Shown: positions 15,392 through 20,038 of the stretch, in pieces
Layout of the letters: the number at the start of each line of letters is the position of its first letter
How positions within the stretch are numbered: the first letter of the stretch is position 1
Source: a virus
UHGV virus genome: UHGV-0068847
Length of the DNA: 27,295 bases
Direction: 5' to 3' (one strand)
The notes under the pieces: generated by a model
Told to the model about the DNA's origin: nothing
Databases searched by the model: none
The model's input: only the letters and a program-made list of their open reading frames with translations
Position numbers and translations under genes: made by a program

Positions 15392-15670
15392 ATGACCAGA
15401 ATGAGCACCATTTACAGCAGACTTTCATATGGATCAGGAACCACGCTTGCCGGCTGCGGTGTATCAGCGAAGGCATATGCCGAAACAGCTAAAACAGCAA
15501 AAGAGGTGTCCTGGATGTTGGCCGACAGAATTGCAGGGTTAAGCCTGAGCGACTGGGCAATTATTGTCGGTATCGCATGCACAGTTATCACTTGTGCAGT
15601 GAACTGGTATTTCCGCTGGAAAGAACGGGAGGATCGGCGCAATGGCTATGCCACCAAAGCTGAAGAATAA
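15392..15670 (+). CDS. Class II holin, probable pinholin with a dual-start motif (92 aa)
   Basis: MTRM dual-start motif (Met1-Thr-Arg-Met4). A weakly hydrophobic G/A/S-rich first TM segment and a strong second TM segment (WAIIVGIACTVITCAVNWYF) are followed by a charged tail. Strong GGAGG SD. Overlaps the endolysin start. Confidence 0.8.
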   Translation: MTRMSTIYSRLSYGSGTTLAGCGVSAKAYAETAKTAKEVSWMLADRIAGLSLSDWAIIVGIACTVITCAVNWYFRWKEREDRRNGYATKAEE

Positions 15671-16190
15671 ACTGAGCGCAGCGGTCGTTGGTTTGATTCT
15701 TGCGGGGGCTTCCGCGCCCGTGATTCTCGATCAGTTTCTGGATGAGAAAGAGGGTAACAGCCTGACAGCATATCGCGACGGCGGCGGAATCTGGACTATT
15801 TGCCGTGGCGCCACGATGGTTGATGGTAAGCCAGTAGTTCAGGGCATGAAGCTGTCTGCTGAGAAATGCGCCAAGGTGAACGCCATAGAACGCGACAAGG
15901 CGCTGGCGTGGGTTGAGCGAAATATCAAAGTACCACTGACCGAACCACAGAAAGCGGGTATTGCGTCATTTTGTCCTTACAACATCGGCCCCGGAAAATG
16001 TTTCCCTTCTACGTTCTATAAGCGCATTAACGCTGGTGACCGTAAAGGCGCCTGTGAAGCGATCCGCTGGTGGATTAAAGACGGCGGCCGCGACTGTCGT
16101 CTGACCAAAGGCCAGAAAAATGGGTGCTATGGGCAGGTCGAGCGGCGCGATCAAGAAAGTGCGCTGACGTGCTGGGGGATTGACCGGTGA
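15642..16190 (+). CDS. SAR endolysin (GH24 T4-lysozyme-like), 182 aa
   Basis: Catalytic E-x8-D-x5-T triad ([16 protein letters not shown]). The N-terminal G/A-rich signal-anchor-release segment is [19 protein letters not shown]. Confidence 0.92.
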
Positions 16191-16651
16191 GTCGACTAAC
16201 AAACATCATCATTACTGTGATCATCTGCATAATCTTATCTCTAGGCTGGGCCGTTAACCACTACCGCGACAACGCGATCACCTACAAAGACCAACGCAAC
16301 AAAGCAACTGAAAAGCTCAGCCTAGCTAACGTTACTATCACCGACATGCAAACCCGCCAGCGCGATGTCGCTGCACTGGATGCCAAATATACGAAGGAGT
16401 TAGCTGATGCGAAAAACACCATTAGCGGTCTACGTGGCGATGTTGAGTCTGGGCGCAAGCAGCTGCGCGTTGCAGCCGCCTGCAATAAAGTGCGTCAAAC
16501 CACCGACACCGCCAGCATGGATGATGCAACCGGCCCCAGACTTACTGACACCGCTCAACGGGATTATTTCACTCTCAGAGAGCGAATAGAAACTGTCACC
16601 AAGCAACTTGCCGGATTACAAGAATATGTCAGTGCGCAGAATTTAAAATGA
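16187..16651 (+). CDS. Rz: i-spanin Rz (154 aa)
   Basis: N-terminal TM segment and coiled-coil body. The C-terminal [10 protein letters not shown] motif resembles lambda Rz. GTGA overlap with the endolysin stop. Confidence 0.9.
16407..16589 (+). CDS. Rz1: o-spanin Rz1, embedded in the +1 frame of Rz (60 aa)
   Basis: Lipobox-like LGASSC. The segment [27 protein letters not shown] is near-identical in pattern to lambda Rz1. GAAGGAG SD 7 nt upstream. Confidence 0.88.
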
Positions 16652-16711
16652 CTTGTCACCTATTTCGCTGTCTGATTAGTTATTCAATATTAGTTGGCAT
16701 AGCGTTAGTAA

Positions 16712-16957
16712 TTAACTGCAATGGCTATGACTGCAATTAATTATGGCATCAGCTTTGCTTGATGAGGATGATGGATATTTTTCGGATAAGAATTTCTGTA
16801 TGTCTTCAACAGCTTCGATGCTGACTCTAATATTTGTATGGCCATTGTTTTTTAAATAATTAACTGCTTCATCTATAAGGTTGTTTTCTGATAGAAATTT
16901 GATAACAATGGCAAAGTTATCAACGCCGGTTTCGGTTAAAAGTTCACAGTTAGGCAT
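16712..16957 (-). CDS. Hypothetical 81-aa acidic protein (third gene of the small triplet)
   Basis: AT-rich ORF with a CTGGAG SD inside the end of the preceding gene and only a 5-nt gap. No plus-strand ORF competes. No domain recognised. Confidence 0.6.
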   Translation of the reverse strand: MPNCELLTETGVDNFAIVIKFLSENNLIDEAVNYLKNNGHTNIRVSIEAVEDIQKFLSEKYPSSSSSKADAIINCSHSHCS

Positions 16958-16962
16958 GGTTG

Positions 16963-17211
16963 TTACTCCAGTGATGTAAATGAGATTTTATTTTGGATTG
17001 TTTTTTTATCAGCGTGGGTGATATGTTTGTATGATTTTTGAGGTTGCCTAAACACAAAAGTTGTATTCAAAGTAATCGAGCTAATTAGGGTGGGCCGCTG
17101 GTTTGGTAAGGTCAGGGGATTAACTCTTATTCTATTACCTTTCTGCGTTGCCATAACCATGGGCAGACCCATCGTAATGGTAGTTTTTGAATAGGCCGCT
17201 AATGAATTCAT
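16963..17211 (-). CDS. Hypothetical 82-aa protein (second gene of the triplet)
   Basis: The ATG at 17211 forms an ATGA overlap with the upstream stop. T/S/N-rich sequence that looks beta-rich. No domain recognised. Confidence 0.55.
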   Translation of the reverse strand: MNSLAAYSKTTITMGLPMVMATQKGNRIRVNPLTLPNQRPTLISSITLNTTFVFRQPQKSYKHITHADKKTIQNKISFTSLE

Positions 17212-17396
17212 GGCGCATGGTTTTGGGAGGCGATTTGCAAGCAGGCATCTCGGACTTGTATCGCAAGACGAAGCCCTTCCTGAAATCTTGCTGATGCGTT
17301 GGGATCGTTTGCTGAATTTAGATAGACATTAAAAAGCTGCATGATGGTAACGCTATATGCTTGCTTAATAGCATTTTCAGTAATTGTTTCGTCCAT
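17208..17396 (-). CDS. Hypothetical 62-aa helical protein (first gene of the triplet; track ORF extends to 17456)
   Basis: The internal ATG at 17396 is preceded by GAGGAG 7 nt upstream. The remaining 5' part of the track ORF lacks an SD. Confidence 0.55.
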   Translation of the reverse strand: MDETITENAIKQAYSVTIMQLFNVYLNSANDPNASARFQEGLRLAIQVRDACLQIASQNHAP

Positions 17397-17482
17397 CGAG
17401 AATCTCCTCGGTAGCATAGATGACAGGTTTACTTCCGTCTTACCATAGGTCATCAATGGGATTACTTTAATAGGAAAGAAGC

Positions 17483-17605
17483 ATGAGCAAGCCGGACTGG
17501 GAGGTCATCGGGGCGGCGTACTGTGCCGGAGTGATGGCCCTCCGTGAAATTACATCGCAGCACGACATTAGTGAAGGGACAATGCAGAACCATACTAACT
17601 ACTGA
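17483..17605 (+). pseudogene. 40-codon fragment resembling the N-terminal HTH of a phage small-terminase or DNA-binding protein
   Basis: Hand translation gives MSKPDWEVIGAAYCAGVMALREITSQHDISEGTMQNHTNY*. The pattern (MSKPDW..I...Y..G..SLREI...H.IS.G) is typical of such N-termini and ends prematurely. Confidence 0.45.
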
Positions 17606-17635
17606 GTGAGTGAAACAGACAATATCATCGGTAAG

Positions 17636-17767
17636 GATGATGGCAATAGCCCCCGACTTACTGACGCCGCTAAACGGGATTATTTCACCCTCAGAGAGCG
17701 AATCAGCACCATCACCGGGCAAGTGAGTTACTTACAGGATTACATCAGGCAGCAATGTTTGAAGTGA
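17636..17767 (+). pseudogene. Duplicate 3' end of an Rz gene, with an embedded Rz1 3' end
   Basis: Translates to [43 protein letters not shown]. The +1 frame gives [17 protein letters not shown]... About 65 nt are highly similar to 16521-16586. There is no 5' part. Confidence 0.8.
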
Positions 17768-17801
17768 ATGGCCGCTAGACTTAGCCAGCCATTTTAAAGA
17801 G

Positions 17802-18227
17802 TTAACCAACGGTTAATGTGGAAAGCAAATGCGAAGTTTCCCCAGAGCAGTTAACAGTGGTTTCGTTGTAAGGGAATTCACCCGTATACTCGCTATTTGC
17901 AGGGGGAGTCATTTTGTTAATCAATGCAGCTTCTGCGCGCACCCGATCATCTTTTCCAGTAATAGTAGCGACGGAATAGCAGAGAGTCTCACCGACCATT
18001 AAATGTTCATTCCAGTCACCCAGCCTGTCGTGCGTGGCCACACGGGATCGGACGTTCGATGATTCGCCGATATAAATCAACTTACGAATTTCGAGTGTTG
18101 TCTTGGAGCCATTAGTAACAGCTTTGCATGCGTATACGCAGTAGATTCCTGACTGATCTGGAACGCCACTCTTATTGGCTTCACGCCAATACCCATCAAA
18201 TTGCAGATTAATTGTTTTACCAGTCAT
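17802..18227 (-). CDS. Stand-alone GIY-YIG nuclease-domain protein (141 aa)
   Basis: SGIYCVY...LIYIGESSNVRSRVATH, then RAEAALINKMTPPANSEY, supplying the GIY, YIG, Arg, Glu and Asn elements in canonical order. AGGAG SD 8 nt upstream. No extra DNA-binding domain. Confidence 0.8.
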   Translation of the reverse strand: MTGKTINLQFDGYWREANKSGVPDQSGIYCVYACKAVTNGSKTTLEIRKLIYIGESSNVRSRVATHDRLGDWNEHLMVGETLCYSVATITGKDDRVRAEAALINKMTPPANSEYTGEFPYNETTVNCSGETSHLLSTLTVG

Positions 18228-18647
18228 TTATAGCTTCTCCTAATTACGCCAACAATAGCGCAATAGGGAAGTGGGGAGATAAATCCAAGTTACAATGAGC
18301 AATCAGTATTTCAATGACTTATGTCATGATTTTCTTATTAATTATAGAAAATATGGGGTTTTTCCATGATGACTGCCATCGTGATAGCAGGTCGCTCAGC
18401 CATTGAACGGTAGGTTGTTTGTTACACAGGCTGCCATTACAGAGGCATTCACTGAGCGCCTGAGATAATGCACAATAACTCCCCCTGTACTGAAGGAAAT
18501 GTGGAAGAGAAAAATTCCATAGGGAGCAGACTAATCTGTAGGGATTGTCTCGATATCATTAGCGCGGTCATCCGGAAAGAATGGTTGATATGTACTGATT
18601 AGTCAAAATCATGCAGAATAGTCACAGTATAAATATGCGAGGCTATC

Positions 18648-19151
18648 ATGAATTATATTTACCAATTAGTGATCTCTGTAGTAGCGGGTGGACTTGGTGC
18701 ATGGATTGCAATGTTATTTGCTTTAAAACGTTTTTATAGTGAAAAGTGGTGGGAGAAGAGAGCAGGGGCCCTTATTGAATTAACTAATGCAATTTATCAG
18801 GTAAAGGTTCTACAAGATTATTATTCTGATTTGAAAGAGTATCAACGATTAGGTCCAGATGAATATCCAAACTTTATCAAATTGAGTGCTGAGAAACTTA
18901 GTAAATTACAAATCTCAGCTGCTGAGGCAAAAGATTTAATAGTAAAATATAGCAATATCGGCCCCTTGCTGGTTACTGAATCAGTATCAAAACTTCTAAC
19001 TGATTATTTGAAACGAGAAGATAAGGTTGACTATGAAGTTAATTTTCAGGGGTTAGATACAGATGATGCTGAAGAACATCTCTTATCGTTGACAAATAAA
19101 CTTCTGGAAGATTTAGTTAAAGAATCAAAAAGCGTTCTTAAAGCAAAGTAA
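18648..19151 (+). CDS. Single-pass membrane protein with a helical/coiled C-terminal domain (167 aa)
   Basis: N-terminal TM helix YQLVISVVAGGLGAWIAMLFAL followed by K/E/L-rich helical sequence. Very low GC. GAGG lies 5 nt upstream of the ATG. No family recognised. Confidence 0.75.
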   Translation: MNYIYQLVISVVAGGLGAWIAMLFALKRFYSEKWWEKRAGALIELTNAIYQVKVLQDYYSDLKEYQRLGPDEYPNFIKLSAEKLSKLQISAAEAKDLIVKYSNIGPLLVTESVSKLLTDYLKREDKVDYEVNFQGLDTDDAEEHLLSLTNKLLEDLVKESKSVLKAK

Positions 19152-19168
19152 TCTAGAAGAAAACCTAA

Positions 19169-19197
19169 GGGCACTAAATGTGATGTGCCCATTTAAT
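19169..19197 (+). terminator. Weak stem-loop after the membrane-protein gene
   Basis: GGGCAC-10 nt-GTGCCC followed by ATTTAATT. Confidence 0.4.
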
Positions 19198-19279
19198 TGT
19201 GCATACGCTAAGAGAATCATTATAGGGATAGCTTATAAATCGAATTGTGAAATTGATATTTATTATCGTTTGCGGGTCC

Positions 19280-19480
19280 TTTCCAGCGATCCGCTCCGTT
19301 ACGGGGCGGCGACCGCGCAGATTCTCGCTATTTATGAAAATTTTCAGGCATTTGCCGTTTCCGTTCTTCTTCTCGCTAATTCATTGTTTTAACTGTAAAC
19401 ACCCCCTGAAAAGAAAGGAAATGATAAGCCTTAAAAACGGCTAAATAGCCAGAGGGCGTTTCCTTTCTCTGTTTTTGTGC
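19280..19480 (+). other. Lambda-type cos site (cosN cohesive-end sequence at 19304-19315; cosB R3, R2 and R1 terminase boxes)
   Basis: CGTTACG|GGGCGGCGACCG differs by one base from recalled lambda GGGCGGCGACCT, and TCGCTATTTATGAAAATTTTC follows. R3 CGTTTCCGTTCTTCTTC is at 19356-19372, R2 CTGAAAAGAAAGGAAATG at 19406-19423, and R1 CGTTTCCTTTCTCTGTTTTTG at 19457-19477. All lie directly upstream of nu1. Confidence 0.88.
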
Positions 19481-19492
19481 ATGGAGTGAGCT

Positions 19493-20038
19493 ATGGAGGT
19501 CAACAAAAAGCGTCTTTCTGAAATATTTGGGGTCAGCGTGCGAACCATTCAGAACTGGCAGGATCAGGGAATGCCTGTAGCACGTGGCGGCGGAAAAGGT
19601 AATGAGGTCCTCTATGAATCTTCCGCGGCTATTGAATGGTATTCCGCACGCGACGCGGCGATTGAGAATGAGAAATTACGGAAGGAGGTGGAAGACCTTC
19701 GTCTTGCATCGGAATCCGACCTTCAGCCTGGTACGATTGACTATGAGCGTCATCGCCTCACCCGGGCACAGGCTGACGCCCAGGAACTAAAAAATGCAAA
19801 AGATTCCGCTGAGGTGGTGGAAACCGCATTCTGCACGTTCGTGCTGTCGCGGATGGCCGGAGAAGTAGCCAGCATTCTTGATGGAGTTGCTCTGTCTGTT
19901 CAGCGGCGCTTCCCGGAGCTGGAAAACCGACATATTGATTTCCTCAAGAAGGACATCATTAAAGCCATGAACAAAGCAGCTGCGCTGGATGAAATAATAC
20001 CGGGGTTGCTGAGTGAATATATCGAACAGTCAGGTTAA
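19493..20038 (+). CDS. nu1: Terminase small subunit Nu1 (181 aa)
   Basis: MEVNKKRLSEIFGVSVRTIQNWQDQGMPV...SEYIEQSG is near-identical to recalled lambda Nu1 along its full length. Confidence 0.97.
   Translation: MEVNKKRLSEIFGVSVRTIQNWQDQGMPVARGGGKGNEVLYESSAAIEWYSARDAAIENEKLRKEVEDLRLASESDLQPGTIDYERHRLTRAQADAQELKNAKDSAEVVETAFCTFVLSRMAGEVASILDGVALSVQRRFPELENRHIDFLKKDIIKAMNKAAALDEIIPGLLSEYIEQSG

Follow-up and report, generated by a model that had tools for sequence, protein, structure and literature searches.

The bor gene of phage lambda, which sits between Rz and cos, is the textbook moron of a phage late region, in the sense of Hendrix and Juhala. BrxB, a protein of the BREX (bacteriophage exclusion) defense systems and the nearest thing to a described relative that we can offer for one of the genes discussed here, is described as an inactive STAND NTPase in which a helix-extension-helix insert follows the second strand (PMC12839542). 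The locus in question lies in the virus genome UHGV-0068847, analyzed as one stretch of 27,295 nucleotides (nt), which we call the window. In its region 16712-17456, between Rz and a cos site of the phi80 type, three open reading frames (ORFs) follow one another on the minus strand; we refer to them, in their order on that strand, as A, B and C. A first-pass annotation, made from the sequence letters, took them for a translationally coupled triplet whose products work together. We are fairly confident of a different reading: the triplet is a composite of two unrelated single-gene morons, A and C, of a Citrobacter lambdoid prophage, joined head to tail and antisense to the late operon in the slot between Rz and cos. 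B is most likely an accident of their joining. The verdict is one of ordinary mosaic moron cargo, and A and C are already deposited as hypothetical proteins.

The layout itself was described correctly. The coordinates of the three ORFs, their Shine-Dalgarno (SD) sequences, the ATGA overlap between A and B and the gap of 5 nt between B and C were all confirmed. The block was said to be AT-rich and convergent with Rz, and so it is: its GC content (16600-17400) is 0.33-0.47, compared with 0.50-0.56 for the lysis genes, and Rz is intact. No competing plus-strand ORF in the block exceeds 40 amino acids (aa), and the block does occupy the moron slot between the lysis genes and cos/Nu1, antisense to the late operon. 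The pattern as a whole is improbable by chance, since mononucleotide shuffles of the 831-nt block gave three same-strand ORFs of at least 60 aa in only 15 of 3000 cases (0.5%). The openness of B taken by itself is only mildly unusual: the 254-nt spacer between A and C is wholly open in one forward frame in 1.7-2.4% of shuffles.

Gene A codes for a predicted soluble protein of 62 aa and, judged by its conservation, is a real gene under purifying selection, because its family holds to 62-63 aa down to 49% identity and its ratio of nonsynonymous to synonymous substitution rates (dN/dS) is 0.12-0.16. An exhaustive HMMER search recovered homologues at 90, 59, 53 and 49% identity, each colinear with A from Met1 to the C-terminal Pro, and a profile search added members from Klebsiella, Enterobacter, Hafnia and Buttiauxella; going by these matches, the family is found mainly in prophages of the Enterobacterales. 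The dN/dS values come from comparison of the window with loci L023 and L025 (dS 0.26-0.30), and between those two loci themselves dN is 0 at a dS of 0.16. A start at TTG 17456 would lengthen the protein to 82 aa. We favor the 62-aa form because substitutions among close copies cluster immediately upstream of ATG 17396, and they are rare within the ORF. A has no match above threshold in Pfam, PHROGs, NCBIfam, PADLOC or the sequences of the Protein Data Bank (PDB). A Rop-like hairpin, after the 63-aa protein of ColE1, was considered and dropped: hhalign gave a probability of 1.5%, and no member of the A family matches the Pfam Rop family.

The contexts in which A occurs are instructive. At L023-L026 it stands divergent from an intact 200-aa small-terminase gene, in the same position as the small-terminase (terS) relic of the window, with the promoter-like TTAAAA-17-TATATT before it and a GC hairpin after it. 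At L001, L003 and L004 it adjoins a 40-codon terS relic, exactly as in the window, and is followed by the hairpin AAAAAACCGCCCGAAGGCGG. Elsewhere it travels by itself: L018-L021 have a 58%-identical homologue as a solitary antisense gene between packaging genes and MazG/HNH genes. The most distant homologue (49%, 63 aa; L022 4001-4192) is in a non-phage chromosomal context, where it shares 20 nt with the start of a Peptidase_M32 gene and has a gene for a major facilitator superfamily transporter upstream.

What separates A from C is a scar. Homology between the window and the A-only relatives L001, L003 and L004, which runs at 92-94%, stops at window position 17148 in all three. That position falls in codon 21-22 of B, so the first 21 codons of B are simply the 3' flank of A. 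At the same place the three relatives carry the hairpin (CCGCC-CGAA-GGCGG), which has been substituted in the window. Among relatives with 84-98% identity in the A protein, a hairpin terminator lies about 60-75 nt downstream of A; terminator scans pick it up for both strands of L004 and, in L023, for the late-gene strand. In the window, where that hairpin has been replaced, no terminator was found after A. Everything on the other side of the breakpoint, the segment 16652-17147 with the rest of B and all of C, was seen only in the lineage that carries the block.

ORF B, which straddles this junction, is most likely an accidental frame and not a functional gene, because the breakpoint lies inside it, its frame is a stub of 18-29 codons in close relatives, it is frameshifted in one copy of the block and it has no family. 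The frameshifted copy is L027, the most diverged version of the block at 98% identity, in which a 1-nt insertion ends B at 43 aa and several further changes have accumulated. The exhaustive HMMER search found no homologues of B beyond near-identical copies, its own 43-aa frameshifted form among them (P0007, from L027); weak matches in several stretches to the long proteins P0016 and P0020 (E about 1e-4) were treated as spurious. Gene finders called B in one of five loci, and the annotation pipeline PGAP leaves it unannotated, with consecutive locus tags for A and C in Citrobacter braakii and in a metagenome-assembled genome (MAG) of Hafnia. Its product would be strongly basic and rich in T, S, N, Q and K, with lower GC at first than at second codon positions (GC1 < GC2), a composition that is just what an A-rich non-coding strand translates into. 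A codon-usage frame test penalized the alternative frames mainly for their stop codons. Read as RNA, the B region is no more stable than its shuffles (z = -0.7).

The ATGA overlap, which had been taken as a sign of coupling, turns out to be a by-product of the way A ends. The ATG of B is retained in relatives because it is part of the conserved Ala-Pro-stop ending of A, and it is there even where the frame downstream runs for only 18-29 codons. A separate observation concerns A in Citrobacter cronae (L001, 10001-10390). There a 1-nt deletion at its penultimate codon fuses A to 67 unrelated codons across the terminator hairpin, and the fusion has been entered as a hypothetical protein of 129 aa, a further case in this region of a junction ORF called as a gene.

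Gene C is another matter. From the divergence of its family we conclude that it is a real gene, one of a family of solitary small genes with a broad distribution, because the family keeps a conserved length and the protein is retained even though synonymous sites between members are saturated. The exhaustive HMMER search gave 13 proteins, which are 59-94 aa long and about 30-55% identical; the full-length members measure 78-94 aa, with 30-52% identity, and follow the pattern LTET.i..F..f.KFL.ennLiD.A...LK.KG...i.VS.ep..EiQ, then a variable linker and ..vI.S.H. Gly39 and Ser46 are invariant, and Leu27, Leu35 and Gln54 nearly so (at least 90%). The identical C protein turned up in 127 blocks of the collection index, with 57 contigs counted, and the C of L027 differs from that of the window by two substitutions, both synonymous. 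Homologues of C stand alone, and about 240-390 nt of non-coding DNA typically precede them. At L012 (4001-4255) an 84-aa homologue lies alone and antisense inside a module of phage head and connector genes, so the family would seem to be recurrent phage cargo inserted at differing sites. Other homologues lie at chromosomal sites beside a Ser/Thr kinase (L014, L015), others near a radical-SAM gene (L032, L033), and the family reaches MAGs of Thiobacillaceae and Rhodothermaceae. An AlphaFold2 model from a 15-sequence alignment, with a predicted local distance difference test (pLDDT) score of 77.7, consists of three to four helices without any sheet; residues 12-24, 28-37 and 47-60 are helical, residues 38-46 are extended and the Ser/Cys/His tail is disordered. 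C has no match above threshold in Pfam, PHROGs, NCBIfam or PADLOC. A match to phrog_18434 (E = 0.006) was made by one of 14 family members and was taken as chance.

That none of the three could be matched to a known family had already been noted, and the searches of Pfam, PHROGs, NCBIfam and PADLOC for all three ORFs bear it out at threshold. A and C are not orphans, as one search had made them appear: a word-indexed search with A, B and C concatenated gave a single match and missed identical entries, an outcome that the exhaustive HMMER search overturned. Other nulls have their own scope. Single-protein pattern scans brought up no relatives of C in viral, genome or metagenome contigs and none of B in viral contigs; neither A nor C had a tblastn match among phages; and of the block, compared by megablast and blastn with 5,426 complete E. 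coli genomes and with GenBank phages, only the Rz relic was matched.

The co-occurrence of A and C was tabulated by tblastn over 34 fetched loci, and here the two genes part company. A occurs without C at 13 of them (L001-L004, L018-L026) and C without A at 12 (L005, L006, L012-L017, L031-L034). They occur together at L007-L011 and L027 only, and each of these is 98% or more identical to the window. By this distribution A and C are independent genes and form no conserved pair, because they are never together outside that one lineage. Two candidate partners were considered and dropped: in L023 the 77-aa gene after A is no homologue of C (hhalign probability 0.2%), and in L014 the 62-aa gene that precedes the C homologue is no homologue of A. 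The block lineage belongs to Citrobacter and Hafnia prophages. A contig of assembly GCA_052443195.1 (L009) matches the block of the window at 100% identity; in the Citrobacter freundii complex (C. braakii, C. freundii) both A and C bear the label "hypothetical protein", and C is annotated in a Hafnia MAG beside a 94%-identical homologue of A. The unit of A, B, C, Rz, lysozyme and holin adjoins differing packaging modules, either an HK97-type TerL with HNH or Nu1/GpA, and its right-hand neighbors differ too; it therefore moves as one recombination module. Its intactness across these backgrounds reflects the recent spread of one block and is no evidence of long-term co-selection.

From these comparisons a simple history can be proposed. 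In its close relatives A is a self-contained unit beside the start of the small-terminase gene, equipped with a strong SD and a GC-rich hairpin terminator. In the block lineage, recombination at about 17148 swapped that hairpin for a 0.5-kb AT-rich segment bearing C, and the junction happened to leave one frame open from an ATG in the stop context of A to just before C. This frame is B, most likely a non-functional by-product or, at the most, a very young one. In the lysogen, A and C are probably transcribed from a promoter that lies between the terS relic and A, antisense to a late operon that is silent at that time. With its terminator lost, transcription of A would read through into C, to which C may add a weak promoter of its own; the promoter-like site just upstream of C (Table 1), a consensus match, could be that promoter. 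Transcripts may even continue antisense into Rz, because no terminator was detected after C. A and C would each be translated from their own SD. Neither protein has a catalytic motif, a signal peptide or a membrane segment, and we suspect that each acts alone by binding a partner protein. The candidate promoter of A falls below the threshold of the promoter scan in the window, and its equivalent in L023, TTAAAA-17-TATATT, with 9 of 12 consensus positions, was picked up by it.

Table 1. Features of the window around the A-B-C block
Feature	Position	Strand	Evidence and remarks
Holin	15392-15670	+	gene order, 5' of lysozyme
Lysozyme	15642-16190	+	gene order, 5' of Rz
Intact Rz spanin gene	16187-16651	+	Pfam Phage_lysis E = 1.4e-41; phrog_13 E = 2.2e-67; convergent with C
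Rz1	16407-16589	+	embedded in Rz
Gene C, 81-aa protein, predicted helical	16712-16957 (16957->16712)	-	GGAG at 16969-16966 in last codons of B, 8 nt before ATG
Promoter-like site CTGATA-16-TAAAAT	16985-17012	-	9/12 consensus; inside 3' end of B, just upstream of C; not above shuffle expectation
ORF B, 82-codon open frame across A/C junction	16963-17211 (17211->16963)	-	ATG within the CC-ATG-A stop context of A; no SD
Recombination breakpoint	17140-17150		conserved A module to right; 0.5-kb segment found only in block lineage to left
Gene A, 62-aa predicted soluble protein	17208-17396 (17396->17208)	-	GAGGAG SD at 17409-17404, 7 nt before ATG
Candidate sigma-70 promoter for A, TTAAAG-17-TATGGT	17442-17470	-	7/12 consensus; in divergent terS-relic/A interval; below scan threshold
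terS relic, first 40 codons of small terminase subunit gene	17483-17605	+	phrog_1206 E = 1.2e-11; divergent from A
Second Rz relic, last ~50 codons	17606-17767	+	Pfam Phage_lysis positions 85-125 of 126, E = 1.6e-14; fused to terS relic
GIY-YIG-like 141-aa ORF	17802-18227	-	sub-threshold: Pfam E = 0.002; PADLOC PDC-S14 E = 1.3e-4; NCBIfam Cho E = 0.002
167-aa protein, hydrophobic N terminus	18648-19151	+	phrog_17948 E = 7e-21; GC ~0.33; directly upstream of cos

The ground between Rz and cos is a patchwork of recombination scars, because the terS relic is fused to a relic of a second Rz and the 3' end of Rz is duplicated. The two copies of that end (16489-16606 and 17605-17722) form a 118-nt direct repeat of 75% identity, and homologous recombination between them could remove the block. 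An Rz1-like C-terminal frame lies at 17610-17726, inside the Rz relic. The fused terS/Rz relic accompanies A in its close A-only relatives L001, L003 and L004 as well, and in L007-L011 the shared part of the terS relic ends at about 17523. Farther right, the GIY-YIG-like ORF is a second antisense cargo gene in the slot, and in other prophages with the A-B-C block a set of genes for 183, 204 and 63 aa replaces both it and the gene for the 167-aa protein. The cos/Nu1 region begins at about 19303, where a 198-nt stretch (about 19303-19500) matches phi80 at 99% identity over its cos end and the beginning of Nu1; the remainder of the moron slot has no match in phi80. The gene for the large terminase lies downstream. 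A scan of 16400-19500 against Rfam returned no RNA family.

Several observations weigh against a composite of two morons and a junction ORF. The candidate promoter sites are consensus matches, no better than expected from shuffled sequence, and the terminator scan of the window finds nothing downstream of C. L027 is a short-read assembly, so its 1-nt insertion in B could be an assembly error; B is intact in every other copy of at least 98% identity. A frame open over the whole spacer between A and C arises in only about 2% of shuffles. A and C have stayed adjacent over several prophage backgrounds, which fits selection for the pair and, just as well, the recent spread of one block. The idea with which the first-pass annotation began was a true operon of three genes, their products working together stoichiometrically, be it as a toxin/antitoxin/adaptor set, as an exclusion complex or as an anti-defense set. 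Tight packing on one strand, the ATGA overlap, the 5-nt gap, a block intact in several prophages and an improbable open middle frame all speak for it. The comparative evidence does not. A survey for the three ORFs as a unit at other loci returned A alone or C alone, and the two families together in a single lineage; the supposed middle member has a recombination breakpoint within it, a frameshift in L027 and no family; and neither PADLOC nor Pfam nor NCBIfam gives any toxin-antitoxin or defense signal. We regard such an operon as very unlikely. Conservation of the reading frames, which had been named as a check on the whole triplet, upheld A and C, whose families keep their length, and failed for B.

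A milder version, in which B alone is a real and very young chimeric gene made by fusing the ATG at the stop of A to an incoming open frame, deserves more patience. Eighty-two open codons in AT-rich DNA (p about 0.02), an ATGA overlap that would permit reinitiation and so translation by coupling to A, 0-1 substitutions in L007-L011, and the fact that some pipelines call B as a gene are all in its favor. It must contend with the missing SD, the very basic product of low complexity, GC1 below GC2, the lack of homologues, and the contrast in L027 between the frameshift and several more changes in B and the two synonymous changes in C. We think it unlikely, though it stands above the other alternatives in our estimation. 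At the opposite extreme none of the three ORFs would be functional, and the block would be decaying debris like the relics of terS and Rz beside it. The region is indeed full of gene relics, and no ORF has a known domain. This account is contradicted for A and C by their divergent families of conserved length and by the dN/dS of A, and we give it almost no credence.

One further proposal concerns what C does, and it is compatible with the composite architecture. C might be a stand-alone mimic of the segment of BrxB that contacts the BrxC ATPase, and so modulate or inhibit BREX-type defense. The C-family profile matches Acinetobacter BrxB in the PDB (9zll_E, E = 0.016) and a BrxC-BrxB chain (9zn5_A, E = 0.006), and more C members match Pfam BrxB than any other family, three of 14, with a best E of 0.0014 over profile positions 3-63 of 124. 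Against three plasmid BrxB proteins hhalign scored 33.7 (P about 3e-5, probability 69-75%), pairing residues 6-78 of C with 63-135 of BrxB, when 400 column shuffles reached at most 20 and reversed sequences 11-13. The aligned part of BrxB contains R82, which is required for BrxC binding and for restriction (PMC13326643), and small phage proteins that bind BrxC are known, OrbA being one (PMC11580459). The objections are considerable. All the sequence scores lie under curated cut-offs (the best member, P0003, reaches 19.0 bits where 26.8 are needed), the C of the window gives no Pfam BrxB match at E<=1, and the hhalign P loses its significance once corrected for some 25,000 screened families. 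R82 pairs with an Asn that is not conserved in C, and fold searches with the C model gave no BrxB match. No BREX gene lies in the flanks of any C-family locus, several of which are not phage loci at all; the plasmid brxB genes, by contrast, lie between DUF1819 and brxC in the plasmids of Vibrio and Polaromonas, and an IS1006 transposase comes after the Acinetobacter copy instead. C is on the antisense strand typical of lysogen-expressed genes, unusual for an early anti-defense gene. By these alignments the chances of a true remote homology between C and BrxB seem roughly even. That C actually has a BREX-related function is unlikely, and the mimicry of the BrxC-contacting segment is doubtful to the same degree. 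Equally speculative is the most elaborate form of the idea, in which C is a free-standing strand 2/helix-extension-helix piece of BrxB and its family of 78-94 aa serves as decoys or modulators of BREX-like STAND/AAA+ immunity, tuning or disarming the BREX of the host.

There is a general caution in all this. Recombination scars in the mosaic late regions of prophages can produce close packing, an ATGA overlap and an SD within the ORF that comes before, and such signals alone do not indicate a functional complex; it was comparative context that split two real genes from a junction ORF. What the locus documents is two uncharacterized families of small proteins, A mainly in prophages of Enterobacterales and C more broadly, together with a clear case of moron fusion through loss of a terminator. 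Should the similarity to BrxB prove real and functional, the C family would be a candidate new class of BREX modulators and a probe of the poorly understood interaction between BrxB and BrxC.

How, then, does the locus compare with systems already described? With BrxB (DUF1788, PF08747) the likeness is sub-threshold but reproducible: C aligns with the stretch of BrxB that covers strand 2, the helix-extension-helix insert and strand 3, and its predicted helix/extended/helix (28-60) resembles the insert described in PMC12839542. C, at 81 aa, is far shorter than BrxB, which has about 190, and the remainder of the alpha/beta core is missing from it; it falls below the Pfam cut-off, stands outside any BREX locus and does not conserve an equivalent of R82. 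OrbA of vibriophage ICP1, a small phage inhibitor of BREX that binds BrxC (PMC11580459), is an analogy of function only, for the speculative reading of C, and it comes from a lytic phage, whereas C is antisense prophage cargo that is also found outside phages. Type II toxin-antitoxin and small defense cassettes share with the block its small adjacent genes and overlapping or close stops and starts. They differ in that A and C have no conserved pairing; of the toxin, antitoxin and defense models compared with A, B and C, PADLOC matched no family, and Pfam and NCBIfam gave nothing relevant.

The locus does behave like lambdoid moron cargo. A and C are small extra genes between the lysis and packaging modules, on the strand opposite the late operon and in a block of atypical base composition. 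Their presence varies, relatives with the same holin and lysozyme carrying other cargo in the slot, and in its relatives A comes with an SD, a hairpin terminator and a promoter-like site. The products set them apart, being unlike Bor or any characterized moron product, with no signal peptide or lipobox. So does the architecture, in which two morons have been merged into one apparent operon through loss of the terminator of the first.

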